Virus record (IMG/VR): IMGVR_UViG_3300024239_000121
Coordinates: 7,923 to 71,922 of that record
DNA from: a virus
Direction: 5' to 3' (one strand)
Length of the DNA stretch: 64,000 bases
Positions 13,801-64,000 of this stretch are shown one piece after another (the first letter of the stretch is position 1; every line of letters begins with the position of its first letter). The position numbers and the translations under genes are program-made. The notes under the pieces were generated by a model, which was not told the origin of the DNA, did not search any database, and worked only from the letters and a program-made list of their open reading frames with translations.

Positions 13801-16800
13801 ACTGTGGAAAGCCCTGGCCAAGCACGTCAATCCGGCGATGAAGATCGTCTATGTCACGCCTGAGATGGCGATCCCGGAAGGTGTGGCCGAGAAGCAGGCA
13901 CAGTCTGCCCGTGGTCTCTACAGCTTCAGCGATTCGATGGACACGCTGTACATCAAGAGTGATGCGTTCCGTCGTTCGGGTGTGACGACCGAGCTGCTGA
14001 TGCACGAGCTGGTTCACTCGGTGGTGGCACGTACCATCGATCTGGCCGAGCAGGGTAAGCCTTTGCCGGATACGGCTGATCTGGTGGCTGAACTGGGTGT
14101 GCTGCTGGAGCGTAGCCGTCAGCATGTGGCCGATAAGCCTGAACTGGCTCAGCGGTACAGCAATGCCCTGGCCAACGTGCAGGAGTTTGTGGCGTGGGGC
14201 ATGACCAACCAGGGTTTCCAGCGTGATGTGCTGAACCAGTTCACCCTGCAGACCAAGACCTCGCGCAACGTGCTGGTCAAGGCCATGGAAGCTCTGACCA
14301 ACGTCCTGCGTGACATTCTGTTCCGTGGTTCGGACAAGTCGGCACAGAAGATCCAGGTCACTGGCTTGAAGACGCTGCTGGCCAACGTCTCCGGTCTGAT
14401 GGCGACTGCTGAGCAGGCGCGTGAAACCGTGGGTACTCAACGCACTCTGGCCATGGAAGATCCGGTTCTGGATATGGACGTGGCTGATCTGTTCGATGGC
14501 CTGCGTAACCCCGAGCAGCCACTGGATGTTGGCTTCGAGAGCCACCTGCGTGAGCTGCTGGATAATGTGGTACGTCCGCTGCATGGTCCGTTTGGTGCTG
14601 TGCGTCTGGAAGCCCTGGACGATCAGGCGATCGGTGCCCGTGAGCGTTTCCTCAAGGCCCTGGCGACTGGCAAGGCGCCTTTCGCTGCCAAGCTCAGCGA
14701 GGTGGTGAAGCTGTCCGATCAGGAAGCGTTCCTGGCCGAGAGCATTGAAGTCGCCCTGCGTACTGCCCTGGAGTCGAAGGATCGTTCGTCCTCGCTGGTC
14801 TACCGCGAGCTGAAGGGTCTGTACAACGAGGTCAAGGCCTCGCTGCCGGTATCGGCATTCTTCGATGGCGACTGGACCCAGGCCAACGATGAACAGAAGG
14901 CAGAGGCCCAATCCCTACGTGAGTTCTTCCTGGAGATCCCGGACGGGGAAGGGCAGTCCGACTACCTGAGCCGCTTCGCTGCTCTGGGTCTGGCCTACCG
15001 TCCGCTGTGGAAGCTGCTGGATCGATCCACTCAGCAAGACACTCGTGTCCTGCGTGATCTGACCTGGATGCAGCGTCTGCAGGCTCTGGTCGAGCGTGCC
15101 ATGGCCTATCTGGCCGGCAAGTGGACGCACACCTATGCCGGTCAGCAGGCCAACGACAAGCTCAAGACCCTGGTCGGTGAGCTGGTGGATATCGAAGCCA
15201 AGTACCGGGAGAAGGCTGCACGTCCGAACAACCAGTGGATCGAGATGGCCGAGAACGCTCTGGCCGGTGTCCAGGGCAAGGCCAAGGACATGATCGACCA
15301 GGTGGCCAAGTCGGACATGGTGCGCAACTCGAAGATCAGCGGTGTACGTCTGATGGGCCGGGTGGCCAGCCTGGCTGCTGATGACCGTCTGGAAGCCGTG
15401 ATCGATGCAGGTAACCAGCTGCGTGACCGTCTGTTCAAGGGTCGTCAGGGTCTGATAGCCGGCACATTCAACGAGATGAAAGGCCCGAACGAGATCATGC
15501 TGGCCCTGCTCAACTTCGCCAAGCGCAACGAGCAGGAACGAAAGCACCTGATCAACTGGACCCGTGATACAGCCCTGGGGAGCTTTGCCAACAAAGGTAA
15601 GCACCTGACTGCCAAGGATAAGGACGCCTTGGCTCTGCTGCTGCGTGCTGATCTGGCTTCGCTGCTGGATTACGGCTACTCGCTGGAGGAGATACAAAGC
15701 CTGCTAAGTCCCAATGGCAGCCTGCAGCAGCGGATTGGTGATCTGAGAAAGCAGCTAATGTCCTCGACTCATGCAGCAATGTACCTGCGTCGCGCCGAGG
15801 CATTAGGTGCCTACATGGTTACAGGAAAGGCTCGGATCAAAGGCTTGATGAAAAATGCGGACAACATCGCTCGCATGTTGGGCACCAAACATGCACATAG
15901 CATCCCGGATGCTGAGCTGGAACGAGTACGTCCCCTTATCGATCAACTGGCTTCTCTGTACGCATTGGAATACGCCAACCAATCCGACAAGGACCGGATT
16001 GCCAATGTGCTGGCGACCGAGCTGCAGCGTACCGATGGTGGTAACGGGGTGACTTTCGTGCTGAAGATGCACCGTGCCATGCAGCAGGAAGCCAAGGAAA
16101 AGCTGTTCGAGAATAGTGAGGCCGTGTTCACCAAGGGCTACACACCGGAGATCCACAACCCGCACATCGAGGTACTGGCTGCCACCGAGGAAGAGGGCGC
16201 AGCATTGGAACGCCAAGGCTTCCAGCGTGTAGCAGGTAATCCGTTGAATCAGGATATCGATGATTTAGACAAGCGAGCCAAATACCTCTATGTCCTCAAG
16301 GGCCGTGGTATGCAGCAGCGTCTGACCGGTGCCCTGTCCTACACAGGTGAGCGCGCCAAGGGTAGTCGCAAGCATAGCGGGATAGTCAACACGATCACTG
16401 GCAGTATCAACACTCATAATCAACAGGTGACTCAGCGGATTGCCCGTGCCGCCTCGATTCGAGAAGAGCGGGCAATTCAACAGAGGATGGGGCTTGGAGG
16501 AAGCAACAACTTAATTCCAATCTTAAATGCTGCTGGAGATATCGTTGGGCACCGGTATGAGATGAGCAACAAGGTACGGGATTCCCTGCTGGAGCGAACC
16601 AATGCGTTCGACACTCTGCTGGGTACGCTGCACGGCAACGTGTTCGATAAGCAGGCGTCCCGTGAGCAGAACGCCCAGGTGGTCCAGGCCTTGTTCGATC
16701 AGTGGAATGCCGACAAGGACAGTCGTCGTGACGCCTACATCATGGTGGGTCCGGACAGCAGCGATGACGAAGGTGTAGAGACCTGGCGTCTACTACCGCA

Positions 16801-17962
16801 CCACACCCAGGAAGTGATTCGTCAGGTGTGGAAGGGCAACAACATGATGGTGCGCAACGATCAGATCGACCTGATCGCTGGTTACCGCAAGTACAGCCTG
16901 GCCGACATGTTCGACAAGGATGAGCGTACGACCAAGGGCTGGAAGAACCTGCTCAAGCATCAGGAAGATGAACGCAACATGCTGGAACAGATGTTCGTCT
17001 GGTTCACCGAAGACTTCTTACGGCTGGATAAGAAAGCTGCATTGCGTGTTCGCCAGGCAGAGGATTTCTGGCAGGCGGTAGTACAGGAGGTAAAGGACAT
17101 TATAGTGGTGCGTACTGGCCTGGTTCTGTTATGGAACATGATCAGCAACATGACTGTACTTCTGTGGCAGGGTGTTCCGATCAAGGATCTGATGCGGAAT
17201 CACTGGGTAGCATGGCGTGGGGCAGTCAACTATCGGAAGGATTCCGAAGAGCTGTTCCGTCTGGAAGCAGCACTGTCGACTGGCACGTCTGGGGATGCGA
17301 AGGCTACACAGCAGCGTATTCGCCAATTGCAGGATTCTCTGGCACGTAACCCGGCCAAGGAACTGATTGATGCGGGGATGTTGCCGACCATCGTCGAAGA
17401 CGTGGCCTTGGAGGAAGACCCTTACTCCTATCGCAGCAAGCTGAAGGAGAAGGTGGATCAGTACACCAGCAAGCTCAACCCCACGGTCAAGCAAGCGGCT
17501 GCGTTCGTTTACATGGCTCCGGGTACTCCGTTGCACACGGCGATGAGCCAGGCCACTCAGTACTCGGACTTTGTGGCTCGCTACACGCTGTATCAGCACC
17601 TGATCAACAACAAGAAGGCGCCGAAATCCAAGCAGGAAGCCTTGAAGCGGATCTCCGACAGCTTCGTCAACTACGACGTGCCGTCGCACCGCCACATGCA
17701 GTACCTGAACGACATGGGCTTGCTCATGTTCACCAAGTACTACCTGCGGATTCAGAAGGTGATCATGCAGATGTTCCGGGAGCATCCGGCTCGGGCGATC
17801 ATGATGGTGACCCTGGATAGCTACCTGCAGGGCATGCAGACCATCGTCGACTCCTCGATGTGGGGCCGACTGGGTAATCCGCTGGAGTGGGGTGCCTTGC
17901 AGTACCCTGGCACGCTGGATGAACTGGCCACCATCAAGGGAATGATGAGCCTGATCAAGTGA
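7850..17962 (+). CDS. Virion-encapsidated RNA polymerase (N4 gp50-like)
   Basis: 3370 aa with no Cys seen. Motif A EVDGVTNG, motif B RELMKPPVTKSGYG, motif C NVHDA, and a downstream HELVH zincin-like motif. Confidence 0.97.
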   Translation: MPNFDLDTYFANREARTLGVATPEGVTDLNAKQAQVASASAKKVQVLQELVERRENNERDTVVGWLGLDPNSTGGNVVNTAVSSLSAIEDIAGTVAPEAVREAIDMDSLIATQHAGTKPSSVQRRLIGDGAVSGLKSAIAVPEMAVGLADLVSSGHAGKALEEAGFRPEEAKQFLDTLKTHEQQAASGSVEDAQGFWGTLAEIAENPSFIPHAVTESLFPMLAGGVVGRGLQALGMGVKAASAIGEGAVMAGSAAEGIRQQTEDGLLTPKQAAAAGLTGVMGAGVARLGNAVGGRTGLRDIDEAVTAGTLGTSQRNALARGAGGAVIEGAEETLQSAGEQMLQNVALDRELTEGVGNAAAMGLVTGAAMGSVMTGSAREANEEEVEQASETGNVSSLLQPGAYAPEKAAKALATHSLKNEDPQVRQDNLAKLGEIRSALEDEAKAEAMVERIQQRMESAPQEQQPQLEALLAQATESLTTIRAALGLQDVPAAERKEALAKQLDQVKQAEASITQLMEPEKQDLSSQIELADTVLENVTPEVQQTARKAAERVVSLAMESPEALDVEVANRLASNMANSLTEPERVVLRTFAKAKALAHQVKGLEGVNSDIFNGNKKEGYKGLNEYSSNVRRALAYKTPDLEAAQHEIDGLAKFVESRKAKLAVAQKAFDEVAGSANTQQWVRDRSGTWMPADRQYSYDEMYAMGGMTIHGGSGNLVANIAQETEALEAGLQSLQALYDMKSAAPVQTTVNQPEAAAPQAIEPVEQKAPVETPEQEAGIAEDAPEAVKYRKTNNLKRLFSQQPGNPTTGTQRPLVATENFLTKLSQGEVNTLDYVQQEDLSEEQLGLPSAFIRMAKAWMPTIEDNFFKRTTQASHKTDARDHYYNDYTQYLQDEQGQVDENVKTAIAAAAFAHVADNGGQTLNDNTTINKTLGKDKDASITPAANQKLRRIGTLRGALINSLGQAVVQSLGYQLKDDAPQSEKAKLEVALGAQALALLLDQGIVEQTTLTKGELDDLKGVDFNGQIKAMRAVAKTQADRDAITKLIESRKNEVAFIRFVTNKDGSLTQEAQAIRDASKNTGGLFTKLFGIETGPREPSFKPLKYNQKTANNSTKPISDKERAALEKEAKAPYILQKDMWAVLEKIANPAMILQMAGVQDEALETLHKTNRDGVIAKNQGLLREWERLVAFVGDLSRQKAGQDTKFYLMPSAWKNDRVGLDSAINPQTSKIHRFVVGKQSAETVVRWTEDDQTNLDVFKLRVAEGLGVKTDKQDNKRSLAAYEAEMQKPVYQDAVAALRKALLDQDLTSGEQQAIVEGVKAGRANFHSLSSLVAQATYENAREAGQQKFTTMLLAEVDGVTNGPMLSHLLFGAFGSLKDAMTRLNKGGFFEIGNAFEQYNLWRAAPGQSDLYESTAIDLNKVVQKKWQNKKLQPMYSALFYVTGKLDDNGSPTRAGRELMKPPVTKSGYGEGLGKTVETMAEDFIQQVYDHIQEISAGKSKLELQPLLSSVRLLISKADEKAAAELDVDMPIEKAMEFTFTNQQFKALKATYLNTLGSDITDTISKAFGRFTQRRQVFNQAANLAFDLYQQLYQSKRRALIEQLIAEGKMATDAKGVPLHDLTNKQEAELQASLTDVAPILHTAFSSAGDQLEAGMRLAKRDKGLSNEAAYRNEVKFGKKGKKPMAGLRAFGYKIGEVGPGVSGAVGSVHSTDAAISINAGAEVDSINVHDARIYGLKDVHAGARSLNKQTFLQALEYSPMDQMLATLERSIKGLADALAQENDATLKAGVASLLAEKIASLSENQRETLSQSGKGPIEFQLDQLRATALAAESMKLEILANLQAVDQYAFEGGAYRVTEQDRAKAQQKLEERKNRPADEAATEAAKRIDATLNQKTAQAKPAPVVQSEPTLVDDADLGIPERQEDPVVTTSAWGELGKSPIEHDSELVQFFKSNPQPSLKDVLKVLRARIEATSTGRTQEFNRELWKALAKHVNPAMKIVYVTPEMAIPEGVAEKQAQSARGLYSFSDSMDTLYIKSDAFRRSGVTTELLMHELVHSVVARTIDLAEQGKPLPDTADLVAELGVLLERSRQHVADKPELAQRYSNALANVQEFVAWGMTNQGFQRDVLNQFTLQTKTSRNVLVKAMEALTNVLRDILFRGSDKSAQKIQVTGLKTLLANVSGLMATAEQARETVGTQRTLAMEDPVLDMDVADLFDGLRNPEQPLDVGFESHLRELLDNVVRPLHGPFGAVRLEALDDQAIGARERFLKALATGKAPFAAKLSEVVKLSDQEAFLAESIEVALRTALESKDRSSSLVYRELKGLYNEVKASLPVSAFFDGDWTQANDEQKAEAQSLREFFLEIPDGEGQSDYLSRFAALGLAYRPLWKLLDRSTQQDTRVLRDLTWMQRLQALVERAMAYLAGKWTHTYAGQQANDKLKTLVGELVDIEAKYREKAARPNNQWIEMAENALAGVQGKAKDMIDQVAKSDMVRNSKISGVRLMGRVASLAADDRLEAVIDAGNQLRDRLFKGRQGLIAGTFNEMKGPNEIMLALLNFAKRNEQERKHLINWTRDTALGSFANKGKHLTAKDKDALALLLRADLASLLDYGYSLEEIQSLLSPNGSLQQRIGDLRKQLMSSTHAAMYLRRAEALGAYMVTGKARIKGLMKNADNIARMLGTKHAHSIPDAELERVRPLIDQLASLYALEYANQSDKDRIANVLATELQRTDGGNGVTFVLKMHRAMQQEAKEKLFENSEAVFTKGYTPEIHNPHIEVLAATEEEGAALERQGFQRVAGNPLNQDIDDLDKRAKYLYVLKGRGMQQRLTGALSYTGERAKGSRKHSGIVNTITGSINTHNQQVTQRIARAASIREERAIQQRMGLGGSNNLIPILNAAGDIVGHRYEMSNKVRDSLLERTNAFDTLLGTLHGNVFDKQASREQNAQVVQALFDQWNADKDSRRDAYIMVGPDSSDDEGVETWRLLPHHTQEVIRQVWKGNNMMVRNDQIDLIAGYRKYSLADMFDKDERTTKGWKNLLKHQEDERNMLEQMFVWFTEDFLRLDKKAALRVRQAEDFWQAVVQEVKDIIVVRTGLVLLWNMISNMTVLLWQGVPIKDLMRNHWVAWRGAVNYRKDSEELFRLEAALSTGTSGDAKATQQRIRQLQDSLARNPAKELIDAGMLPTIVEDVALEEDPYSYRSKLKEKVDQYTSKLNPTVKQAAAFVYMAPGTPLHTAMSQATQYSDFVARYTLYQHLINNKKAPKSKQEALKRISDSFVNYDVPSHRHMQYLNDMGLLMFTKYYLRIQKVIMQMFREHPARAIMMVTLDSYLQGMQTIVDSSMWGRLGNPLEWGALQYPGTLDELATIKGMMSLIK

Positions 17963-20318: not shown

Positions 20319-21059
20319 TTACGCGCCGAACAGGCTGGTGGTCGGACGGCTGTTGCCACCGGCTGCAGCTGCTTGACGCGGGGCACCGGCAGTACCGGTG
20401 CTGGCACCCTTGGTGGTCTTGTCCTTGACCTTGCCAGCCCACTTCTGCTCCCAGACGGCGAAGAAGTTGGCCTGTTCAGCCTGAGCACGGATTTCCGCCG
20501 TGGTCATCTTGTCGCGGGCACGGAAGATCTTGTCGACTTCGTTCTCCTCGCGGCTTTCGCCGGTCGGCTGGTAGACACCAGCAGCGTCCTTGGCGGTCTT
20601 GTCGACGGTCTGCTTGAGCAGGCCCAGCAGGACTTCCTGACCGATCAGGTCCATCAGCACGTCAACCTGAGTCGGCACCTCCTTCTTCTCGGTCGAGGAG
20701 TAGAGGTTGACCACTTTCTTCTCGGTGTCGAGCTGGCCGATCTCCTTGCCCACAGTGAGTAGGGTCAGAGCGTTGGCATGCACGAAGCCCGGCAGGTAGT
20801 GCTTCTGGCCCTGCTTGTCTTCGTAGTAGTTCTTGCAGCCCTTGGCAGTGCCGGAGGTCATCCAGAACTGCTGACGGACTTCACCATCGTCATCCTTGAA
20901 GGTGACGTTCAGTGCCAGGGCACCGGAGCTGGCCTTGGAGACGTAGGCCAGTGCGACTTTCATCGGGTACAGACCCGAGTCACGAACACGGGAACCACCA
21001 ACGGAATCTTTCTCGTCGGCGATATTGTTGTCAGTAGTTAGAGCAGCGAGCATGGACAT
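20319..21059 (-). CDS. ssb: N4 gp45-like single-stranded DNA-binding protein
   Basis: EKDSVGG, FWMTSG..KG.KNYY and C-terminal SLFG features; position after the AAA gene. Confidence 0.88.
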   Translation of the reverse strand: MSMLAALTTDNNIADEKDSVGGSRVRDSGLYPMKVALAYVSKASSGALALNVTFKDDDGEVRQQFWMTSGTAKGCKNYYEDKQGQKHYLPGFVHANALTLLTVGKEIGQLDTEKKVVNLYSSTEKKEVPTQVDVLMDLIGQEVLLGLLKQTVDKTAKDAAGVYQPTGESREENEVDKIFRARDKMTTAEIRAQAEQANFFAVWEQKWAGKVKDKTTKGASTGTAGAPRQAAAAGGNSRPTTSLFGA

Positions 21060-21120
21060 AAGAGTTACCTTTTGTTGAATTGAGTGGGGGCTTGGCGAAC
21101 TGTCGCCAGGGTGACTGGAA

Positions 21121-21846
21121 TCAGTCGTAGTACTTATGCAGATGATCGAGGATCGCCTGCATGTTGTTGTCGGTGAAGGTCTCGGAAGTATCGAACAAAC
21201 CGAGTGGGCCACGCAGACGCTCGCCTACAGTGTCCTTTGTCAGTTTGGTCTGGAAGACATACTTGAAACCAAGTGCTTCTTCTTCCGGAGTGATGTTCAA
21301 CAGCGGCGAAGAATAGTCCTTCAAGTTCTTCAAGGGAACTTTCTTCGAGGCAATTACTACAGTGAAGTAGCTTTCGATGCCGTTGTTCTTCAGTGCGCCT
21401 TTTACCGGGACACAAGTTTCCAGAATCATTTCAGATTCGTTCACAGTGTCTTTGGTGTGGGCGATGAAGATCACGTTCTTGGAGGACTTGGCTACATGCT
21501 GTTGCATGAGCGTCTTGAAGTACTGGGCAAAGTCGCTCCAAGATTTCATGGTGTTGGCTGAATTCAGCACGAACAGCGACTCGTACATATCCAGCAGATA
21601 GGTCAGCGAGTCCACCACGATGGTGTGGACCGTTGGATCTTTCTCAGCCACTTCGAAGGCTTCGAAGACCTGGTGGGGATCGGTGATGGTGTACTGACGG
21701 AACTTGGCTCGGAACGGCAGTTTCTTGCCAGCCTCGCAGTTCAGGTACATCACACCTTCCGGATTCTTCAGGCCCATCAGCGAGGCGGATTTACCGGTCG
21801 CGGACTTGCCACACAGCAGAATCAGGTGGTCGTTTACTTGGGTCAT
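21121..21846 (-). CDS. N4 gp44-like AAA/P-loop ATPase
   Basis: Walker A GKSATGKS, Walker B IVVDS; AAGGAG RBS before ATG 21846. Confidence 0.88.
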   Translation of the reverse strand: MTQVNDHLILLCGKSATGKSASLMGLKNPEGVMYLNCEAGKKLPFRAKFRQYTITDPHQVFEAFEVAEKDPTVHTIVVDSLTYLLDMYESLFVLNSANTMKSWSDFAQYFKTLMQQHVAKSSKNVIFIAHTKDTVNESEMILETCVPVKGALKNNGIESYFTVVIASKKVPLKNLKDYSSPLLNITPEEEALGFKYVFQTKLTKDTVGERLRGPLGLFDTSETFTDNNMQAILDHLHKYYD

Positions 21847-27273: not shown

Positions 27274-27303
27274 AGGCTCGAACCCCCTTCAAAACCCTGA
27301 CCA

Positions 27304-27591
27304 GATCCGAGGCGCGAACGCAGCACAAGGCGACGCAGGCGCAGCCGAGTACGCCGCCAGTGCGGAGGTTCGTGTCGAGGATCAGGGAAGGAGAGTTGGT
27401 GTAGCGAGTCGTGATGCCGTGACCGAAGGGTCGGGAGGGCGCGCATTCTAGTGAACGGGTTCACTGAAATTGCTTGACCTGGATCAACTGGCATATAGCC
27501 ATCAGATCGTGTCGATGAATGGTCACTGCAATGTCGCATCCGCACCTGGCGCTCGCAAGCTCGCTGGGTGCTGCGCTCCGCTGCAGTGACC
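27304..27591 (+). ncRNA. Candidate structured RNA or ssDNA-hairpin (origin-like) locus
   Basis: 16-position stem (27304-27319 with 27368-27383) containing tandem G-A and two G-U pairs; AGTGAAC-GG-GTTCACT; 10-bp inverted repeat (27521-27530 / 27582-27591) enclosing a further G-U-containing hairpin. Confidence 0.45.
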
Positions 27592-27658
27592 TGTTCTTCC
27601 TTGAAATCACACTGAACCTCTTCTCAATGGTTCGTCATCGAACGCCCGGAAGGGCGTC

Positions 27659-29893
27659 TCAGAAGGTCAACTCGCAGACACCCCCTGCACAGGCTTGAGC
27701 GCCCATGGTGGATACATCCGTGTAGGTCTGCTTGCCCAGTTCCTTGGCAAAGTCGATGCCTACCATCTGACGCTCGATCGACTTCCAGCGATGGAAGTTG
27801 TGAACGTCCTTCAGGCAGCCAACCATCTCTTCCACGTTGCCCTGGAAGTAGTTGTCGGTGAAATTCTTCGCACGACGCACCCAGTCACGCTTGAGCAGGT
27901 CCTTGGAGTGGCTGGCATGCAGCTTCAGGCCCTTGCCCTGCAGGGTGTCGCAGGCTTGCCAGAGGTTGTCGTTGAAGGCATACAGCCCATCGACGATCAG
28001 GCCAGAGGCGAAGATCGAGGCATCACCGTACTTCTCGGAGATCTCCTGACGGGTCAGGACCTCGGTGAACGGGGCCTGGGGATAGGCCTTGTCACCTTCA
28101 CCAGCCAGCAGGCTGATACCAGCGAACCACTGACGGTTGTCGAAGATGTACTGCTCGACTGCATCCCAGTCGTCCACCGTGATGGTGTTCGACACGTTGT
28201 GACGCAGCTTAGGATCGGTACACAGCTCCACGTTGGTGCCGTACTCGACCCAGAACTGCTGAGCCTTCTTCACGTAGTCCAGCTGCTTCACACCGAGCAG
28301 GTCGTTCTTGTAGATCGACCCAGGCTTGCTGGTCACCGGGAAGCTGACCACCTTGTCGGTGCCGGTACTGGACCACACGCTGTCTTCAACCATGCAGCCG
28401 TTGCGTTCCACCATGGTTTCGCACACCAGATCCGCATCGTTCATCTGCACGTTGCGGAAGTAGCGAGGCGAGTGCTCACCGTGGATACCGGAGGCCGTGC
28501 CCAGCAGGACCGAGGCATTACCGGATGGCTTGACGCAGGTGGTACGTGCTGCTGCGTTGATACCCAGCAGGGCGGCCACTTCAGCGTTGACCTTCTTCAC
28601 CAGCTCGGCACCGTCGATCATGTTCTGCTCATCGAACAACACGTCCGGATTGTTCATCCAGCCGGTGATGGAAACGCCGATCAGGGCTTCCCGTGCGACG
28701 ATCTCCTGGGTGGCCTGGCTCAGGTAGGTGAAGTTGGTGTAGCCCGCTTGCAGAGTGCCCAGAATGGCTCCAGCACGGCACGCATCCATGAAGCTGTCCC
28801 AGTCGTTGCAGTAGCTGCCGTTGATCTCGGACAGGTTGCACATCTGGAAGCCTGAGCGACCGTCTTCGGTCAACGGCAGCATGCCGATCTCGACGCACGG
28901 GTTGTAGGCGTGATCGAGGTTGTCGGTGAAGATGAAGCCAGGCTCACCGAAGTCCTTGACCGACTTCATGATCACTGACCACTCCTCACGAGTGATCTTG
29001 TCACGCTCGATCAGCACGGAGTTGTTGGAGCGACCACGCTGCGGGTTGTTGACGAACCAGTCACCGGTCTTGGCGTTCAGCATCTCCTGATCGTCCTTGC
29101 TGAACAGGCAGATGGTCGCACTGCGACGCACGCCACCGGACAGTACGGCATCGGCCATGAACATCACGAAGTCGTAGGCGACGATCGAGGTCATGCGATT
29201 GCTGGTCTGGGTGTGGCGATCCAGCAGGCTTTCGCACTTGGCCAGGGCCATGCGCAGGCCATCCGGACCAGGTGCCTTGAAGCCACCGCTGATGAACGCA
29301 CCCTTGGCACGGATCAGGCCGAAGTCGAAGACGACGTGGCAGCCCTGGTACTCGGGGAACGGTGCATCGGATTCCAGGTAGCTGGAGAGCAGCACGCCGA
29401 AGGCATCGGCCCAGCCCTCGATCGAATCCGGGATCTCGAAGACCTTGGTCTGGCCAGACCGATGAGGTGCCAGGTTGGGCAGCTTGTCGATGTGCTGCTT
29501 CTGCACCGAGAAGCCTACGCCACAGCCACACAGCAGCAGGTACATGGCTTCCTGGAAGAAGGTGGGGCGATCGACGTGGCTGGAGCTGCAGTTGTAGAGA
29601 CGGGCTTCGTGCTTGAACAGCTGCTCGCCACCGAATTGCAGAGCACGTTGGGCACCCAGGACTGCTTGCTTGGCGTACATGTCTTGGGCGAACTGGATGT
29701 GCTTTTCCAGTTCAGGGGTCATTACATCCTTGTATTTTTCCCGGTGCATATCCATTACACGGGCTACCGACTCTTCCCAGGTTTCATAGCGGTTGAGCGA
29801 GTCAATCCAACGGGAATAACCCATATAGAACTTCGACTGGCTCAACATACGCTTGCCCAGGGTTTCGAAAGACAAGGAACTACTTGCAGACAT
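27659..29893 (-). CDS. nrdJ: Class II (adenosylcobalamin-dependent, monomeric type) ribonucleotide reductase
   Basis: GGVRRSA, NPCVEI, CNLSEIN, KPSGNAS and C-terminal CAGGVCE; no small-subunit gene present. Confidence 0.9.
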   Translation of the reverse strand: MSASSSLSFETLGKRMLSQSKFYMGYSRWIDSLNRYETWEESVARVMDMHREKYKDVMTPELEKHIQFAQDMYAKQAVLGAQRALQFGGEQLFKHEARLYNCSSSHVDRPTFFQEAMYLLLCGCGVGFSVQKQHIDKLPNLAPHRSGQTKVFEIPDSIEGWADAFGVLLSSYLESDAPFPEYQGCHVVFDFGLIRAKGAFISGGFKAPGPDGLRMALAKCESLLDRHTQTSNRMTSIVAYDFVMFMADAVLSGGVRRSATICLFSKDDQEMLNAKTGDWFVNNPQRGRSNNSVLIERDKITREEWSVIMKSVKDFGEPGFIFTDNLDHAYNPCVEIGMLPLTEDGRSGFQMCNLSEINGSYCNDWDSFMDACRAGAILGTLQAGYTNFTYLSQATQEIVAREALIGVSITGWMNNPDVLFDEQNMIDGAELVKKVNAEVAALLGINAAARTTCVKPSGNASVLLGTASGIHGEHSPRYFRNVQMNDADLVCETMVERNGCMVEDSVWSSTGTDKVVSFPVTSKPGSIYKNDLLGVKQLDYVKKAQQFWVEYGTNVELCTDPKLRHNVSNTITVDDWDAVEQYIFDNRQWFAGISLLAGEGDKAYPQAPFTEVLTRQEISEKYGDASIFASGLIVDGLYAFNDNLWQACDTLQGKGLKLHASHSKDLLKRDWVRRAKNFTDNYFQGNVEEMVGCLKDVHNFHRWKSIERQMVGIDFAKELGKQTYTDVSTMGAQACAGGVCELTF

Positions 29894-40594: not shown

Positions 40595-41016
40595 GCATCC
40601 TGGGAGTGGTGCCTTCGCTACTGGAAGTCGGTAGCAAGCTGATCGACAAGCTGATCCCAGATCCAGAGGCGAAAGCCAAGGCTCAACTGGATCTCTTGTC
40701 GCTTCAGCAGAACGGGGACCTGAAGGAACTGGAGACGCGCATGTCGGCCATCATCGCTGAGGCCAGCAGCACTGATCCATGGACCAGTCGGGCACGTCCG
40801 TCCTTCCTCTACGTGTTCTACTTCGTGATCCTGAGCCTGACGGTTGTGGCTCCGGTGATCGGGGTGTTCAACCCGGATGCCATGGCGTTGTTCTTCGAGA
40901 ACGTAGGCAAGGGTTTCGCTGCCATTCCGGAAGATCTCTGGTTTACATTCACTGCAGGCTACTTAGGATATGCAGGCTTTAGGACAGTAGAAAAGACAAA
41001 GGGACTCTCCCGGTGA
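40591..41016 (+). CDS. Holin (GTA-type 3TM holin family)
   Basis: KLIDKLIPDP, DPWTSRARPSF, TM segments and GYLGY..RTVEK. Confidence 0.85.
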   Translation: MSILGVVPSLLEVGSKLIDKLIPDPEAKAKAQLDLLSLQQNGDLKELETRMSAIIAEASSTDPWTSRARPSFLYVFYFVILSLTVVAPVIGVFNPDAMALFFENVGKGFAAIPEDLWFTFTAGYLGYAGFRTVEKTKGLSR

Positions 41017-41591
41017 AAAACTGCTTGTGGTGTAACACCCCTTTTGAGCCAAGACGTAAGGATGCGTCTTGCTGCTCTCGTAAGTGCGCAAAAGCCCGAT
41101 CAGCTCATCTATGGAGAGATGCAAACAGGGAAAAGCATAGGGAGTACAGCTCAAATTATTACCAAAAAAACCAAGAGGCCTGCTACAAGACAAGCAGGGA
41201 GTGGATCTCGGCTAACAGAGGGAAGGCGTCGTCTTACAAAAGAGCATGGGAGGCAAGAAACCCAGAAGCCAGTAAGAGGTGCAAACGGAATTGGGAACTC
41301 CTCAATCCAGCGGCAATGGCGAAGAAGGCTGCCACTAGAAGGGCAGCCAAACGGAACGCCTGCGTCGCTCGTGGCTCGGAATATCACGAGTTCTTCATGC
41401 AGGAAATTTACTTAACCAGACAGGCACTTTCTATAGCTACTGGAGTTGTTCATCATGTGGATCACATAGTGCCGCTGATTAGTAAACACGTCTGTGGGCT
41501 GCATGTACCCCTCAATCTTAGGGTGATTCCTTGGTATGAGAACCTGTCCAAAGGTAACCGCTTGATACAAGCGATGGGTGTAGCTGCGTAG
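41013..41591 (+). CDS. HNH endonuclease
   Basis: N-terminal CxxC..CSxxC; HHVDHIVPL..VCGLH...NL..EN..KGN; lower GC. Confidence 0.88.
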   Translation: MKNCLWCNTPFEPRRKDASCCSRKCAKARSAHLWRDANREKHREYSSNYYQKNQEACYKTSREWISANRGKASSYKRAWEARNPEASKRCKRNWELLNPAAMAKKAATRRAAKRNACVARGSEYHEFFMQEIYLTRQALSIATGVVHHVDHIVPLISKHVCGLHVPLNLRVIPWYENLSKGNRLIQAMGVAA

Positions 41592-41630
41592 CCTAATCAA
41601 GGAGTGGAACCGGTGAGAAAAACTCACAGA

Positions 41631-41660
41631 AAAAAGCCCCGGATCTCGGGGCTTTTCTTT
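41631..41660. terminator. Bidirectional terminator
   Basis: AAAAAAGCCCCG-GATCT-CGGGGCTTTTCTTT. Confidence 0.85.
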
Positions 41661-41666
41661 GCCCAT

Positions 41667-41690
41667 TTCGGGCCACTTTTCGGGCCAATT
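41667..41690 (+). repeat. Integrase arm-type sites, left
   Basis: Tandem TTCGGGCCACTT and TTCGGGCCAATT. Confidence 0.75.
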
Positions 41691-41761
41691 GGGTGTTTTT
41701 GAGGGCTGTTGAGGGGCCTGCAGCCCAGTAAATACGTTCAACAGACCTCAAAAAAACCCAC

Positions 41762-41797
41762 CTAGAACTGCATGGTGATGTTGGCGGTAGAAATCAA
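41762..41797 (-). other. attP core resembling the 5' end of a host YbiT-type ABC-F gene
   Basis: TTG ATT TCT ACC GCC AAC ATC ACC ATG CAG TTC TAG = MISTANITMQF*; 29 bp from the int stop; flanked by arm repeats. Confidence 0.8.
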
Positions 41798-41825: not shown

Positions 41826-43013
41826 TTAGGTTTCGCTTCGGGCCAATTTCGGGGCAATTTTCAATTTCCCCATCTCGTTCCAGTCACCCTCACCATCGAT
41901 CCAGCGTGCGTATCGAGAGAGGAGAATTTGTAACGAATGGCCGAGCTGTTTGGCGATGAAGGCAGGAGTCATTCCAGCCATCAGGCACATGGTTGCGTAC
42001 GTGTGGCGCGCATTGTACGGAGGCCGGTAACGAATACCCAGCGCCTTCAGGGTTGGACGCCACTGATGGTGCAGGTCACTCGTCTGTTGGATGAACTGAT
42101 GCCCCTTGCTGGGCGGGAAGCAGTGAGGGAATTCCTTGATCCTTCCCGATCCCTTGGCTCGCCGTTCGGCATACGCCTTGGCGAACTCCAGGGCATGCAC
42201 AGCCCGGTCATTGAGCAGCACGTACCGATCCTTCTTGGTCTTGGTTCGGTCTTCCACTTCCTTGAGGGCAACTGTCCGACGAACCAGCACACGACGCTTC
42301 TCCAGCTCGACGGAATCCCACTGCAGTGCAGCGATCTCACCCAGGCGCATGCCTGTGTAGAAGGCGAACTCGAAGAAGGCAGCGTAGATACCACTTGGCC
42401 AGTGCTCGGTGGCATACAGCCTGTCGATGATCAGATCAGCCTCTTCCTGAGAGAACGGATCGATGGTCTTTTCCTTGGGACGGGGAATGTCCAGATCGAC
42501 CATGGGGTTCTCGGCGATGAGCTTGTCGCTCACAGCCGATTCCAGGATGGTGCTCAGCTTGTTCATCGCATTGGCTTTGACGCCATCGGTGGTCCAGGGA
42601 ATGCGTACCACCAGCTCACGCATGAATGCCGTGGTCAGGGCCGTGATCGGCGTGGTGGCCAGGTACTTCATCCACCAGTGGTTGAGCACTGACCGGTAGT
42701 TGACCCGTGTGCCCTCAGCCAGCTCACGGCTATCGAGCCAGACCTGAGCGTACTGACCGAAGGTGTAGCTGACGGCAGCCATGGAATTGGTGGAGTTGGG
42801 GAACAGCTCGGCATAGGCCTCGGGGGTGAGGGTGCCGTGCTTGGCCATCTGGACTACTTTATCTCGTAGACGGGATGCAGCCGTGATCCCCGCTTGCGTC
42901 GTGGGGTAGTCAAGGGTCTCGGAGCAGCGTTTTCCGTTCCAACTGAATCGGATACGGAGCGCACCGTAATGGAGTTCAACTCCTGTGGGCAGTGCCACTG
43001 GCTTTCTTGCCAT
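41826..43013 (-). CDS. int: Tyrosine integrase with N-terminal arm-binding (DUF3596-like) domain
   Basis: TGMRLGEI, YNARHTYAT, IAKQLGH and YARW catalytic motifs; N-terminal LRIRFSWNGKRCSETL. Confidence 0.95.
   Translation of the reverse strand: MARKPVALPTGVELHYGALRIRFSWNGKRCSETLDYPTTQAGITAASRLRDKVVQMAKHGTLTPEAYAELFPNSTNSMAAVSYTFGQYAQVWLDSRELAEGTRVNYRSVLNHWWMKYLATTPITALTTAFMRELVVRIPWTTDGVKANAMNKLSTILESAVSDKLIAENPMVDLDIPRPKEKTIDPFSQEEADLIIDRLYATEHWPSGIYAAFFEFAFYTGMRLGEIAALQWDSVELEKRRVLVRRTVALKEVEDRTKTKKDRYVLLNDRAVHALEFAKAYAERRAKGSGRIKEFPHCFPPSKGHQFIQQTSDLHHQWRPTLKALGIRYRPPYNARHTYATMCLMAGMTPAFIAKQLGHSLQILLSRYARWIDGEGDWNEMGKLKIAPKLARSET
41837..41859 (+). repeat. Integrase arm-type sites, right (inside the int 3' end)
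   Basis: TTCGGGCCAATT and TTCGGGGCAATT. Confidence 0.75.
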
Positions 43014-43204
43014 GTTTCAAACCTCGATCGGCTGTAGTAAATGCGGCCATTCATGCGGTTCCAGACCCCTTCAGGGATCTGCTTCCTTGCTCTTCTGGCT
43101 TCCAGAGAGCGGTCGGTGGTGCCCAGAATTTCAGCCATCTGCTGCTCGGTTACCTTGTCGGGATACCATTCTGGGAGTTCCTTGATCTGCTTTTCTACGG
43201 ACAT
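42854..43204 (-). CDS. xis: Excisionase-like winged-helix protein overlapping the int 5' end
   Basis: EQQMAEILGTT.RSL..RR..IPEGVW..GRIYY; directly upstream of int. Confidence 0.75.
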   Translation of the reverse strand: MSVEKQIKELPEWYPDKVTEQQMAEILGTTDRSLEARRARKQIPEGVWNRMNGRIYYSRSRFETWQESQWHCPQELNSITVRSVSDSVGTENAAPRPLTTPRRKRGSRLHPVYEIK

Positions 43205-43208
43205 GACG

Positions 43209-43245
43209 AATCCTTCCCCTGGTCGAGCCAGGGGAATGCAAGGAT
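43209..43245 (-). promoter_or_regulatory. Hairpin sequestering the xis RBS
   Basis: UUCCCCUGG-CUCGA-CCAGGGGAA, extendable by AUCC/GGAU, ending 5 nt before the AUG. Confidence 0.6.
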
Positions 43246-43264: not shown

Positions 43265-43708
43265 TTACTGAATCAGTTCAGAGGGGATCTGAACGGTGTC
43301 ACCGAGCTTGCTAGCAACGAGGCAGCGCATGGCGGCGATGAGTGGTGTGGGGCCGTAGGAGTGCTCGCTTCGGCCACGATTCATGCACGCACGCCAATCC
43401 GGAGAGGCGTCCTTGAATCGGCTGGCCTGCTCAGCGCTCAGGTTGCAGAACACCTCGATGCCGTGCTGCTCGATCAGCGGCCCGCCCTGGTTCCAGTCGG
43501 TGGATGGTGAGCGCCAGTACCGCCCAAGATGCTGGTCGTATCCCATCTGGCGAGGGCCAACTATGCATACGTCATATTGAGTCGCGGAAATTTTGCGTCT
43601 CAGCTGACCATCCTGTGGGCGGTCGCTTTCCCAACCTTCGGCAACCAGCACCACCCAGTCCAGCGCCGGCCCGATAAGCTCGGCGGTTTTCACTTCAACT
43701 TGGTTCAT
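43265..43708 (-). CDS. NinX/DUF2591-like phage protein
   Basis: VKTAELIGPALDW.V, PSTDWNQGGPLI, GPTPLIAAMRCLV.SKLGD motifs. Confidence 0.85.
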   Translation of the reverse strand: MNQVEVKTAELIGPALDWVVLVAEGWESDRPQDGQLRRKISATQYDVCIVGPRQMGYDQHLGRYWRSPSTDWNQGGPLIEQHGIEVFCNLSAEQASRFKDASPDWRACMNRGRSEHSYGPTPLIAAMRCLVASKLGDTVQIPSELIQ

Positions 43709-44195
43709 CGGATGCCTCCTTCGCAGCCATGGCGGCACGAACGCACCCCATATGCTCTCTATGGTGAGTCATGTACCCACATCCCTCGCATCGAATCTCT
43801 GCCATGCGTGCGACGTTTGCAACCATGCTCGGGAAGTCATCCCCTCCCACGATCTGCCGCACATCGGATAGATAACCCATAGCTGTGCGGTCATTCGCTT
43901 GCGACTCGGCCAGCTGGCCGCGCAGCGCCTCGATCTCGTCTCGCAGCCTATCCCGCTCGGCGGTCACGGCTGACAGGTCAGAACGCAGTTGCTCGACCAG
44001 TCGCTTTGAATGCCGAGCGATCTCGAAGCCCTCAGGGTCTTCTGGCTTGGCGAGGATGGCGCGAAGTTCTGCCCACGCCCTGTCTAGTCGATCTGATGCG
44101 TCCAACGTAAATGACGCAGACCCTTCGCGCCCCATATCAGCATCAGCGCGCATGAGCCGCTCCAGCAGATCCCGATCAACCAATACCTTACTCAT
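43695..44195 (-). CDS. Temperate-phage accessory protein (coiled coil)
   Basis: MSKVLVDRDLLERL start with AAGGAG RBS; VTAERDRLR; C-terminal CEGC..C. Confidence 0.7.
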   Translation of the reverse strand: MSKVLVDRDLLERLMRADADMGREGSASFTLDASDRLDRAWAELRAILAKPEDPEGFEIARHSKRLVEQLRSDLSAVTAERDRLRDEIEALRGQLAESQANDRTAMGYLSDVRQIVGGDDFPSMVANVARMAEIRCEGCGYMTHHREHMGCVRAAMAAKEASDEPS

Positions 44196-58115: not shown

Positions 58116-58292
58116 CTACTCACTGACAACTTCCGGTTTTTTCTTGTTCTTGATGTTATCCCGTTGGATCTCAATTTCTTTCGGGGCATCAATACCAATA
58201 CGGGTTTGACCGTTCTGGGTGCCAAGAATACGGACAACAATGTTGTCACCAATGTGGACTGCTTCACCTGCCTTGCGGGTAATTACGAGCAT
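58116..58292 (-). CDS. csrA: CsrA/RsmA-family RNA-binding translational regulator, not in ORF track
   Basis: MLVITRKAGEAVHIGDNIVVRILGTQNGQTRIGIDAPKEIEIQRDNIKNKKKPEVVSE*; AAGGAAG RBS. Confidence 0.92.
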   Translation of the reverse strand: MLVITRKAGEAVHIGDNIVVRILGTQNGQTRIGIDAPKEIEIQRDNIKNKKKPEVVSE

Positions 58293-61049: not shown

Positions 61050-61244
61050 TTACGCCGCTTTACTGCGATTGAGTTCTGCCAACAATGTGTTGTTGAACAT
61101 CATCAGCAGGCTGAACATCTTGTTGCGATCGGTAACTGGAACTTGTGACTCGATGTAAGTAATTGCATCAGTCACGGAGTCCATAGTGGGATACAGACTC
61201 ATGTGTTCTGGGGCAGACTTTTTGCCTTCAATTGCTTTCAACAT
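61050..61244 (-). CDS. Conserved small N4-like protein
   Basis: LYPTMDS..AI..SQ..LLMMFNNTLL. Confidence 0.7.
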   Translation of the reverse strand: MLKAIEGKKSAPEHMSLYPTMDSVTDAITYIESQVPVTDRNKMFSLLMMFNNTLLAELNRSKAA

Positions 61245-61617
61245 GTTGTTCTTCCTTGGGTTGTAGAGAGAGCAGCCAGTTACCAATGGAAGTACGCGAG
61301 AACAAGGTGATGAGTCTGTCTTGTTCCAATCCTTCCAGGTAACGCTGGACATTGGGGAAAGTAACTGCCGGCAAGTTGAGTGCTTCTTCCAACTTGGCAG
61401 CGGTGAGTTTGTACTTGTCGGCAACTTGCAACAGGTTGGCTTGCTCGACAGTGATTACAGGAGCCTTACCAGTTACACCTTTCTCGCGCAGCACCTTGGA
61501 AATGGTGCCTACGGACACTCCGTACTTGTCCGCGAGTTGGTACTGGTTATGAAACTTCAAAGAATAGATACGAGCGATCTCGTTCTGCTCTTTGTCAGAG
61601 AGAATCCAAACGGTCAT
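61228..61617 (-). CDS. HTH DNA-binding protein
   Basis: QYQLADKYGVSVGTISKVLR. Confidence 0.75.
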   Translation of the reverse strand: MTVWILSDKEQNEIARIYSLKFHNQYQLADKYGVSVGTISKVLREKGVTGKAPVITVEQANLLQVADKYKLTAAKLEEALNLPAVTFPNVQRYLEGLEQDRLITLFSRTSIGNWLLSLQPKEEQHVESN

Positions 61618-61810: not shown

Positions 61811-61825
61811 GTGCGCGGAGCGCAC
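61811..61825 (+). promoter_or_regulatory. GC-GGA-GC triloop hairpin matching the N4 vRNAP promoter core
   Basis: GTGCGC-GGA-GCGCAC; predicted +1 at template C61807. Confidence 0.4.
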
Positions 61826-61834
61826 CTGTTCAGC

Positions 61835-63070
61835 TCAGGAAAGTGCATAGTTTGAATTGCGGATCAGAGTGCTCAGCCCCTGCATACGCTTGGGCACATT
61901 GCCTGCTACACCATGGATCTGGCTCAGAATGTCACTGAGGACTTCCGAGTCAGCCAGTTCTGCAAGTATCTCCTTGTACCAGTGACGCACCCAGTTGACG
62001 TTGTTGGCATGGGCCGCGAACGAGTCATGGATAGTGATCACAGGGAAGGGACGGTACTGAAGCATCTCATTGGTGATGCGCTTGAGTGCCTTCAGGTGAG
62101 TTGTACCCAGACACTCGATGCTGTGGCTGTTAAGGAATGGCAGGATTACCACACTGGCTTGGCCACTTCGTACGAATTGCTCGCCGAAGTAGTCAATATC
62201 GGAGTCCCCTTGAACAGGGGTCCAGCCATTCATGTGACGCTCCAGCAGCTCAGCCTCGATCAGTTCATTGGCATAGCTGACGATGGCCTCATCGTAGTTA
62301 CAGCGACGCAGCAGCTCACGCAGGATGAAGGCGTCGATGGAGTGGATGACATTGGCCACGTTGGCACGGCCAGTCTTCTCACCCTCGTTGACGTAGTACT
62401 CGTAGGTGAAGGTAGCGTGGTCCAGCTCATCCACCTCGATACGAGTGGTCTCCTTGACCATCACCTTGACCTTGGCATCGAAGCCGTCAGGCAGCTTCCA
62501 CGCATGGCTCAGTGCGAATGGCTGCCAGCTGGCCAGCAGATCCTGCAGCAGCTCCCATGCACCTGGTGCCACGATCTCGACAGCCTCATAGAAGGCGTTG
62601 AGTTCTTCAGTGCCTTCACCGAACAGGACCTTCGGCACCTTCTTGGAGCCGTAGCAGCTGGTCATCAGTGCCTGCTTGGTGTGCTTGCGAGGGACGGAGA
62701 ATCCGCCACCCAACAGACCATTCATGCACTCGTTCAGGTCGGTGTAGGCATCGGCACGACGGTCAGGATCAACCAGACCGGTAGCCTTGGCACCTGCGAT
62801 GCAGCCGGTGAGTACCGACATGATCTGCACACCCGAGCAGGTGGCATCCATGGCCACGAGATGACCGGTGGGCTGGCCAGCTTGAGCCTTGCGAATGGCC
62901 ATCACAGCCTTGAGGTACAGCGGCTTGGTTTCAGCCTGATCGAGCAGGTCCTCCAGATGGTCGAGGTTGTCCCGTGCCCATTGTATGCGATCTTCGAAGC
63001 GGAGCTTGTCGAGGCCAAAGTTGTTTGCAGCGTCGATCAGCAGGTATTCAAAGCCTGTGAATGTGATCAT
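61835..63070 (-). CDS. RNA polymerase II subunit 2 (N4 gp16-like)
   Basis: MDATCSGVQI (motif A), RKHTKQALMTSCYG (motif B), NVIHSIDA and TIHDSF (motif C). Confidence 0.95.
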   Translation of the reverse strand: MITFTGFEYLLIDAANNFGLDKLRFEDRIQWARDNLDHLEDLLDQAETKPLYLKAVMAIRKAQAGQPTGHLVAMDATCSGVQIMSVLTGCIAGAKATGLVDPDRRADAYTDLNECMNGLLGGGFSVPRKHTKQALMTSCYGSKKVPKVLFGEGTEELNAFYEAVEIVAPGAWELLQDLLASWQPFALSHAWKLPDGFDAKVKVMVKETTRIEVDELDHATFTYEYYVNEGEKTGRANVANVIHSIDAFILRELLRRCNYDEAIVSYANELIEAELLERHMNGWTPVQGDSDIDYFGEQFVRSGQASVVILPFLNSHSIECLGTTHLKALKRITNEMLQYRPFPVITIHDSFAAHANNVNWVRHWYKEILAELADSEVLSDILSQIHGVAGNVPKRMQGLSTLIRNSNYALS

Positions 63071-63145
63071 GGTTTCAATTCCTTTGGGCAATAGGGTGCC
63101 GTTCAGGGCCTTTTCAGGCTCTGACTGCAGTGATTGGGGTTGGAT

Positions 63146-63358: not shown

Positions 63359-63633
63359 GTGTTGTACCCAGCCAATAAAGCAACGGCTTTGATCTCAGGG
63401 AGTAAGTAATCGTCCCGCAGGACATAGAGAGAATGTGGCGTTATAGGGAGGATTATTTCTGGTTGATCACCGGTCCAGTTGGCGTACCAACGCCCTCTAC
63501 CAGATGACCGGTTGTATAACCGCACTAGAGGGTCCCCCTCCCAGTTTTTTAGAAAGGAATACTCCTGTGATTTAGGTATCAGACGGTAGGTTAGGGACCC
63601 TTGCGGGTCCTTCCAGATGAACAGTTCGTTCAT
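63355..63633 (-). CDS. Hypothetical protein between RNAP subunits
   Basis: ATGA coupling; C-terminal IKAVALL resembles the VKVLALL end of the next gene. Confidence 0.65.
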   Translation of the reverse strand: MNELFIWKDPQGSLTYRLIPKSQEYSFLKNWEGDPLVRLYNRSSGRGRWYANWTGDQPEIILPITPHSLYVLRDDYLLPEIKAVALLAGYNT

Positions 63634-64000
63634 ACGCCCTCCACGATCTCTTCATCGGCCAGCTCAACGATGGCCTTCTTGAATGCACTGCCTTGGGTTG
63701 TGATGTGATAGCCGATGGCATACAGCCGGCCACGCTTGTCCACCTTGTTGGTCAGGTAGAAGCGATTGCCTTGGTTGATCATCAGCATGTACATCTGGTT
63801 GGACTCAGCCTTGAAGGTGTCCCAGTTGTCTATCTGCTGTTGCAGGATCTCCTTGGCTTGAGCATCAGTCAGCACTTCACCCTCTTCAAGGGCCTTGTCC
63901 TTCACGTTCTCTACGCTGAAGGGTTTGTTGGGTTCCTCTTCCATGGCCAGCAGGAAGTCCACGTCCAGCTTGAGCGGGATCTGGTTCTGCAGGTTGATCA
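63630..64000 (-). CDS. RNA polymerase II subunit 1, 3' part (N4 gp15-like; truncated)
   Basis: FYLTNKVDKRGRLYAIGYHITTQG; the frame stays open to the window edge. Confidence 0.93.
   Translation of the reverse strand, partial: INLQNQIPLKLDVDFLLAMEEEPNKPFSVENVKDKALEEGEVLTDAQAKEILQQQIDNWDTFKAESNQMYMLMINQGNRFYLTNKVDKRGRLYAIGYHITTQGSAFKKAIVELADEEIVEGV

Follow-up and report, generated by a model that had tools for sequence, protein, structure and literature searches.

An N4-like phage with a complete integrase, excisionase and attP module, relatives integrated ahead of an ABC-F gene, and no visible classical repressor switch

We analyzed a 64,000-nucleotide stretch of viral DNA (the window), which corresponds to bases 7923-71922 of the 74,540-bp IMG/VR record IMGVR_UViG_3300024239_000121; 10.5 kb of the genome lie outside it. 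Our subject is the pair of genes at positions 41,826 to 43,204, an integrase gene (int) and an excisionase gene (xis), together with the attachment site (attP) that adjoins them. From domain matches and junction alignments, int, xis and attP very probably constitute a site-specific recombination module of lambda type, which makes this N4-like phage temperate. We are equally confident that insertion takes place ahead of a host ABC-F gene, so that int would then read into an intact ABC-F open reading frame (ORF) with a phage-supplied leader. Judging from assembled contigs, close relatives sit integrated in Stutzerimonas-type chromosomes, which marks the phage as very probably a genuine temperate one. 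The sequence shows no classical repressor switch. Our evidence narrows the question of how the polymerase cascade is silenced and restarted, and does not answer it.

The two genes and a structure ahead of xis are the following, in window coordinates.
41826-43013, minus strand: tyrosine integrase of 395 aa with an arm-binding N-domain, a SAM-like core-binding domain and a catalytic domain (Pfam and PHROG)
42854-43204, minus strand: excisionase (HTH_17-like) of 116 aa, phrog_9668, E 6.4e-33
43209-43245, minus strand: hairpin over the xis ribosome-binding site, folding energy -19.2 kcal/mol, z -2.2, only mildly unusual

The integrase matches Arm-DNA-bind_2 (PF12167, E 6.5e-12), Phage_integrase (E 2.5e-19) and phrog_1 (E 3.8e-56). 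Alignment to XerA and inspection found its catalytic positions intact: Arg in TGMRLGE, Lys in KKDR, Y-x-x-R-H, LGH and then the Tyr in SRY. Most gene calls of related integrases begin at a later start, giving 340 aa. The xis gene, which overlaps int by 160 nt, is kept at 74-99% identity in every int-bearing relative; its HTH_17 match of 23.8 bits falls under the Pfam cut-off of 27. The hairpin over the ribosome-binding site may possibly damp Xis translation. An earlier note on this DNA had described int and xis as complete and as sitting at the end of the minus-strand middle-gene array. The domain matches and intact catalytic residues bear out the first point, and the second is confirmed by the gene order, since one minus-strand array runs through early genes, RNAPII, replication, rIIA, rIIB, dNMP kinase, NinX, xis and int.

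Past the int stop lies an attachment site with the following parts.
41765-41797, minus strand: attP core of 33 nt that copies, exactly or almost exactly, the opening 11 codons of the host ABC-F gene with its TTG start
41837-41860, no strand: P arm, two arm-type integrase sites (TTCGGGCCAATT-like) within the C-terminal codons of int, direct-repeat family D1
41655-41690, no strand: P' arm, three arm-type sites, direct-repeat family D1
41690-41760, no strand: 23-nt inverted repeat (pair I1) in the interval from the P' arm to the core, 91% complementary with a 25-nt spacer
41627-41661, no strand: bidirectional intrinsic terminator past the P' arm, -21.2 kcal/mol on the minus strand and -19.5 kcal/mol on the plus strand, z about -3.6

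The core starts 28 nt past the int stop (minus strand, 41797 down to 41765). When the window and free relatives were aligned with the attL contigs and the attR contig described below, phage and host sequences diverged exactly at 41764/41765 and 41797/41798. From 41764 onward, phage sequence goes on in the window and in L006 and G003, two free relatives, and the contigs L004, L012 and L014 enter the ABC-F ORF. The attB host gene encodes an ABC-F ATPase (NCBIfam NF011646/PRK15064, 1012 bits against a cut-off of 762). There are five arm-type repeats in total, two on one side of the core and three beyond it. In L006, a relative 79% identical to the window here, the repeat word is altered (GGGACCAAAA type) on both arms; from these alignments the arm sites appear to covary with the integrase variant, as expected for sites that change together with the integrase. 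The inverted repeat I1 is kept in G003 and is a candidate accessory-protein site or bend. The terminator would end the int transcript in the free form of the phage, and in the prophage it would block the displaced ABC-F promoter from the phage.

The lysogens show a further feature at this boundary (L048, L049, 11186-11250). There, int leads directly to the host ABC-F gene by way of a 28-nt phage-derived leader, and no terminator lies between the two. Expression of the host ABC-F gene in lysogens probably depends on transcription exiting the prophage. A very similar ABC-F leader is kept by a non-N4 element in Stutzerimonas sp. NM35 (L005).

The earlier note had called this a temperate N4-like virus, a claim that depends on the existence of lysogens or junctions; both attL and attR junctions, which occur in several metagenome contigs, and chromosomal prophages were found in relatives, and together with the N4 hallmarks given below they support it. 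The attL junctions into ABC-F are in L004, L012 and L014, the last of which is 98.8% identical to the window over xis, int and the arm. The attR junction is in L030, a 73-kb contig from JGI that runs from the P' arm through the core into host DNA ending in the C-terminus of AcnB; about 19.5 kb of this contig lie past attR, of which the first ~1.1 kb was read. A further relative, G001 (74,640 bp), is a provirus in IMG/VR. It ends exactly at the int stop and the holin stop and is therefore linearized at attP. Nearly all of its ORFs, including the gene for the virion RNA polymerase (vRNAP), align at about full length in single tblastn high-scoring segment pairs.

A scan based on rIIB, run over species-representative genome contigs, found no close prophage; the chromosomal prophages came to light through near-identical capsid proteins, since major capsid proteins 99% identical to that of the window are found on long bacterial contigs. 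SPFI01000013.1 (335,095 bp, assembly GCA_009360415.1) carries DNA polymerase through rIIA, rIIB, NinX and int at 107-118 kb, and early genes plus the structural operon to the start of a 3368-aa vRNAP gene at 141-162 kb. Past int come a complete 529-aa ABC-F gene and then genes for BacA, a chemoreceptor, topoisomerase IB, a GGDEF protein, a response regulator and a NifU-like protein. The int-attL boundary is at ~117 kb, and the 10 kb past attL were read; at least 140 kb lie past the expected prophage end and are taken as host from their length. The second contig, JAOCAE010000006.1 (284 kb, assembly GCA_029839225.1), has int, attL and ABC-F in the same layout and with the same host neighborhood. 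The block from the capsid gene to vRNAP, 34 kb along the contig from attL, was read in the 335-kb contig only. Pfam vRNAP domains are present in the vRNAP homolog of the chromosomal prophage, and RefSeq names one member of the integrase cluster Stutzerimonas kunmingensis. We found no mention of either assembly in the literature.

These integrated copies are genus-level relatives (~90% identity over ~75% of the genome) and not the exact genome of the window. Near-identical int-attP segments occur both free and integrated within one study. The probable source run of the window holds a 74,417-bp attP contig at a depth of 30 and short core-to-ABC-F contigs at a depth of ~5, and two further runs hold intact attP.

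Logan contigs are built with short words, and a 33-nt shared core could mislead their assembly. The junctions might then be chimeras misjoined at the core, or the module might be inert, and the phage would be effectively lytic. We regard this as so improbable that it is nearly excluded. The layout of the 335-kb contig would require two exact chimeric joins, and a second NCBI contig has the same host neighborhood. The prophage is embedded in the 335-kb contig, which extends over 100 kb past it in both directions, and this is beyond what a chimera through the 33-nt core could produce. Both attL and attR are also found in JGI contigs, and G001 was classed as a provirus by IMG/VR. Finally, an inert module is at odds with the intact catalytic residues of the integrase and with arm sites that covary with the integrase variant.

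The record appears to hold the whole genome. CheckV gives it a completeness of 100%, and 153 bases at its start recur at its end with one indel in a poly-G run. Since this 153-base stretch is single-copy in an integrated relative, we take the record as a complete, non-integrated genome of ~74.4 kb. The poly-G run belongs to a variable G/C homopolymer outside the window (bases 27-37 and 74414-74423 of G000, 11 versus 10 at the two contig ends), which has 10 bases in G001, 9 in G003 and 9-10 in the chromosomal prophages. It sits in a conserved 290-bp divergent region between early and late genes, ~100 nt upstream of the first candidate hairpin promoter, and probably explains why IMG/VR scored no terminal repeats.

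The polymerase cascade of N4 is represented in full by the following genes.
7850-17962, plus strand: vRNAP gene of 3370 aa, final gene of the main late operon, tblastn match to annotated vRNAPs
61835-63091, minus strand: RNAPII large subunit (N4 gp16-like), phrog_2051, E 6.7e-149
63630-64000 and continuing beyond the window end, minus strand: RNAPII small subunit (N4 gp15-like), 363 aa in total, phrog_2166, E 9.8e-103
20319-21212, minus strand: N4-type single-stranded DNA-binding protein (SSB), phrog_743, E 1e-71

The vRNAP is 32-33% identical to annotated vRNAPs (tblastn with a 2000-aa query fragment, window 10850-16849, 97% covered). By analogy with N4 (PMC4496689), the SSB is the presumed activator of late transcription by host RNA polymerase (RNAP). 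The major capsid protein, portal and TerL are of N4 type (phrog_1357, phrog_1216 and phrog_38), and the capsid protein 99% identical to that of the window is labeled "N4-gp56 family major capsid protein" in the JGI source. The phage is thus N4-like (Schitoviridae) on every hallmark tested: vRNAP, the RNAPII pair, SSB and the capsid, portal and TerL set. In this clade, vRNAP is also a mosaic gene, with 85% identity in G001 and only 33% in G003, where the flanking genes are ~90% identical. The divergence in G003 suggests a whole-gene replacement of the virion polymerase.

The recombination module appears to be a graft on this genome. The integrase is 52% identical to JBD44-type Pseudomonas siphophage integrases, 72-76% identical to integrases of Stutzerimonas and Pseudomonas chromosomes, and 72-99% identical to those that adjoin ABC-F in such contigs. 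The 76% homolog comes from Stutzerimonas sp. NM35, where it is part of a non-N4 element that adjoins the same ABC-F gene; of the 72-76% group, it is the one whose context was read. Modules of the JBD44 group and of Stutzerimonas chromosomes share the integrase architecture of the window (Arm-DNA-bind_2 plus catalytic domain), whereas the module described here sits on an N4-type genome, at the convergent junction of the middle array and the lysis genes. Relatives whose rIIB is at most 58% identical have no integrase, and in the closest of them the corresponding convergent junction lacks a recombinase. The xis, NinX and neighboring genes fail a codon-usage model trained on the long genes of the phage. 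The codon usage and the int-less relatives together lead us to regard the module as a graft that defines a subclade, which by sequence comparison is made up of the window, G001, G003, L004, L006, L012, L014 and the NCBI prophages.

Two neighboring genes flank the module.
43265-43738, minus strand: NinX-like gene, PF10765, E 3e-17
41013-41591, plus strand: HNH endonuclease gene, phrog_26577/1035, between the holin gene and attP

The NinX-like gene adjoins xis and int throughout the clade, with 40-48% identity in all int-bearing relatives. The HNH gene is an insertion specific to the window genome; G001, G003 and a contig of run X15 have 35 other letters in its place.

Transcription of the early genes may follow the N4 pattern. 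On the minus strand, the early region has five to six hairpins at intergenic positions. They have GC stems and loops of TTC or TCC, a GAG...TGGAAT-like stretch comes after them, and each of them precedes an early ORF or the RNAPII genes. Four to five are located beyond the window. A further hairpin lies directly after the RNAPII genes.
61811-61825, minus strand: GC-rich hairpin with a 3-nt TCC loop

The early promoters of N4 and LUZ7 are GC-rich heptamers flanked by inverted repeats, with 3-nt loops on stems of 4 bp or more (PMC4496689, PMC9163698), and the form of the hairpins matches them; we therefore treat the hairpins as N4-style candidate vRNAP promoters. One hairpin stem differs in G003 by compensatory changes. 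The same hairpin style is found in the early region of phCDa, a lytic Pseudomonas N4-like phage, and the early hairpins are retained in the chromosomal prophage.

Sites resembling consensus sigma70 promoters are three- to five-fold rarer than in shuffled sequence in the genome, G001, G003 and G005. The early region has none, and the genome has 9 where ~31 are expected from shuffled sequence. We considered whether this depletion might be an adaptation to lysogeny and rejected the idea, because the int-less relative G005 is equally depleted (11 versus 37). In the lytic phCDa the depletion is much weaker (32 versus 47).

The search for a lysogeny switch covered about 75 distinct ORFs, scanned with PHROGs and/or Pfam over the whole 74.4 kb and including antisense ORFs near int. 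None matched the CI, Cro, LexA-like, MarR, antirepressor or ImmA families. Beside int and xis there is no helix-turn-helix (HTH) repressor and no divergent gene pair on either strand, in agreement with the statement in the earlier note that no CI/Cro-like divergent switch lies there. A scan for LexA boxes gave 22 one-mismatch matches where 34 were expected, and no perfect one. No family of operator palindromes recurs in the control regions, no 9-mer is common to three or more of the 32 intergenic regions, and an Rfam scan of the whole genome matched no RNA. Promoters of sigma70 type were also sought upstream of int and xis, of the RNAPII genes and of the HTH gene described below, and none was convincing. 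It had been suggested that the switch might lie partly outside the window, and that the missing part of the genome should be inspected for repressor genes. We inspected the remaining 10.5 kb and found no CI/Cro or other repressor family and no recognizable regulator domain, so that the suggestion is not supported. The genes there are for TerS-like protein, TerL, a virion protein, dUTPase, the portal and a tail-type protein; the greater part of the gene for the RNAPII small subunit also lies there, as do six small early ORFs. What stands of the idea that the switch is non-lambdoid is that no lambdoid switch was found; the argument is one from negative evidence.

Regulator-like genes are few.
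58116-58292: ORF for a CsrA-like regulator of 58 aa, phrog_9500, E 5.9e-18
61228-61617, minus strand: clade-specific HTH protein of 129 aa with weak HTH_3, HTH_38 and Sigma70_r4 matches

The CsrA-like ORF is 98% identical in G001 and 78% in G003. The 129-aa HTH protein is the sole candidate repressor that we found. All of its homologs are at least 66% identical and are confined to the clade. Its gene stands alone behind a terminator and a conserved 217-bp spacer, and this upstream region holds a 13-nt palindrome, GGAGAA-N-TTCTCC, and a stem with compensatory changes. A search for similar folds was dropped because the AlphaFold model was too poor (predicted local distance difference test score, pLDDT, 55), and look-alikes in the Atlas gave generic HTH leads only, below 0.9. 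A conserved 64-aa ORF (window 61050-61244) overlaps the end of the HTH gene and fills an apparent 188-bp gap; it has no significant family match.

How, then, might the prophage be kept silent? Our tentative preference is for a cascade that is off by default whenever no vRNAP is injected, and whose restart would begin with some vRNAP or RNAPII produced by host RNAP. The early genes and the RNAPII genes would lie behind hairpin promoters used by vRNAP alone, and the late genes, including the vRNAP gene itself, would rely on weak host-RNAP promoters that require the phage SSB. Loss of the few injected vRNAP molecules would then leave the prophage silent, and a CI/Cro-type switch would be unneeded. 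Both int and xis would be produced as distal middle genes in every infection. To restart, host RNAP would make a little vRNAP (or RNAPII) through leakage or stress; this vRNAP would fire the hairpin promoters of the prophage and so give RNAPII, then SSB, and then the late genes and more vRNAP, with Xis supplied from the middle operon.

Several observations were counted in favor of this default-off cascade. All three N4 polymerase tiers are present; the hairpins are conserved, phCDa-like and kept in the prophage; and the early region has no sigma70-like sites, while no known repressor family, LexA box, operator or RNA was found. In reporter assays, the late promoters of LUZ7 are active with host RNAP alone (PMC9163698). 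A stronger proposal is somewhat less probable, namely that lysogeny here does without any repressor, the prophage being silent because the first polymerase is delivered by the virion and the genome avoids host promoters, with an autocatalytic loop triggered by noise or stress.

Several points weigh against the default-off cascade. The absence of a repressor is negative evidence: ~25 small ORFs belong to no family, and a novel repressor or small RNA would escape our searches. The depletion of sigma70-like sites, which int-less G005 shares, is a trait of the lineage. Leaky late promoters would leak the lysis genes too, so that control of the late genes seems necessary. It is an assumption that cytoplasmic, unpackaged vRNAP is active on chromosomal DNA. 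Both the lysogeny decision at infection and superinfection immunity are left unexplained. The integrated copies, moreover, come from genus-level relatives.

In an explanation that we consider nearly as likely as the default-off cascade, an unrecognized repressor keeps lysogeny. It might be the 129-aa HTH protein, a small early ORF without a family or a small RNA, and it would block the early hairpin, RNAPII or late promoters; induction would follow its inactivation, as in the MarR-like model of temperate T7-like phages, which pair the integrase with a MarR-like regulator (PMC10134795). Many small ORFs without a family match are available for the role, and a repressor would account for the restraint of lysis genes that leaky late promoters would otherwise express. 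The HTH gene is present in three int-bearing genomes and absent from the five int-less relatives G005-G009, two of which are complete, although this co-occurrence may be mere shared ancestry. Its solitary position behind a terminator and its conserved 217-bp upstream region, with the palindrome and the compensatory stem, also fit a regulator. However, the palindrome occurs only once in the genome, and the gene has no sigma70-like promoter in front of it and so no sign of expression by host RNAP in a lysogen. The HTH class is generic and the fold model is poor.

It is also conceivable, but unlikely, that the prophage cannot induce itself. It would then be a dead-end (or near dead-end) passenger, or would be woken only by vRNAP from a superinfecting related virion. 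There is no visible vRNAP-free route to the early genes, and neither a LexA box nor an SOS-type regulator was found. Since the integrase is made as a middle gene in each infection, occasional integration could be a by-product. However, xis is kept with int in all relatives, and the prophages are intact, with a full-length vRNAP gene, retained hairpins and nearly all ORFs at about full length. The near-identical int-attP segments that are free and integrated in one study likewise weigh against a prophage that cannot induce itself. Waking by superinfection is further disfavored by a report that vRNAP, once injected, works inside the ejection complex (PMC13434306), which argues against action in trans.

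Three regions apart from lysogeny control also drew our attention. A 744-aa gene (window 27659-29893) beside a 385-bp non-coding stretch (27274-27658) has no tblastn match in G001 or G003, which suggests that the gene entered the second middle array recently. Between virion genes lies a 93-aa gene without a family match (window 5472-5753) that G001, G003 and G005 all lack; it is accessory to this genome only and stands outside lysogeny control. Outside the window (L007, 3400-4166), a dUTPase gene and a 114-aa ORF without a family interrupt the late operon on the opposite strand, with the gene for a virion protein on one side and that for the portal on the other; the position of dUTPase is as in phCDa.

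Like the phage of the window as we read it, N4 and LUZ7 (PMC4496689, PMC9163698) use an injected vRNAP on GC-rich hairpins with 3-nt loops. They also share with it a two-subunit RNAPII for the middle genes and an SSB that assists host RNAP on the late genes, which include vRNAP. Unlike it, both lead a strictly lytic life and lack int, xis and attP. A further difference is that in the window phage the middle array ends distally with rIIA/rIIB, dNMP kinase and the lysogeny module.

LUZ100, a temperate T7-like phage (PMC10134795), offers another parallel. Like the window phage, it belongs to a lineage once thought strictly lytic, has its own RNA polymerase and carries an integrase. The control proposed for it, sporadic expression of the phage polymerase by host RNAP followed by positive feedback, resembles the loop of the default-off cascade. 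In T7-like phages, however, host RNAP transcribes the early genes and int has a MarR-like repressor gene as its neighbor, whereas the first polymerase of the window phage comes in the virion. Neither a MarR-like gene nor an operator set like those of LUZ100 was found in our phage.

Integrases in N4-like phages are not new. A 2023 survey described lysogeny hallmark genes in 54 N4-like genomes and also reported 40 integrated proviruses (Zheng et al., mSystems, PMC10654107), and its authors propose that the integrase was acquired horizontally and is restricted to particular subfamilies. The viruses of that survey, like the window, are N4-like with an integrase, and some are integrated in bacterial contigs. 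The novelty put forward in the earlier note was therefore overstated. Its remark that no mechanism had been worked out does hold for this paper, in which the word "repressor" occurs 0 times and no control mechanism is given. The survey concerns mainly Moraxella hosts, does not mention stutzeri or Stutzerimonas, and gives neither att sites nor an excisionase; here attP, attL and attR are mapped to the ABC-F start and a complete genome is checked for a repressor. The window phage is a further N4-like integrase carrier, with a Stutzerimonas-type host and now with mapped att sites and with chromosomal lysogens identified by accession.

Phages of the N4 type are commonly taken to be safely lytic, for example in the choice of phages for therapy, and this clade has a complete lysogeny module and chromosomal prophages. 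When the first transcription step of a phage requires a protein that travels in the virion, the silencing and restart of its program must take an unusual route. With the att sites and the two NCBI assemblies there is a concrete system in which silencing and restart can be tested. If true, lysogeny without a repressor would be a new logic for the switch between lysis and lysogeny.

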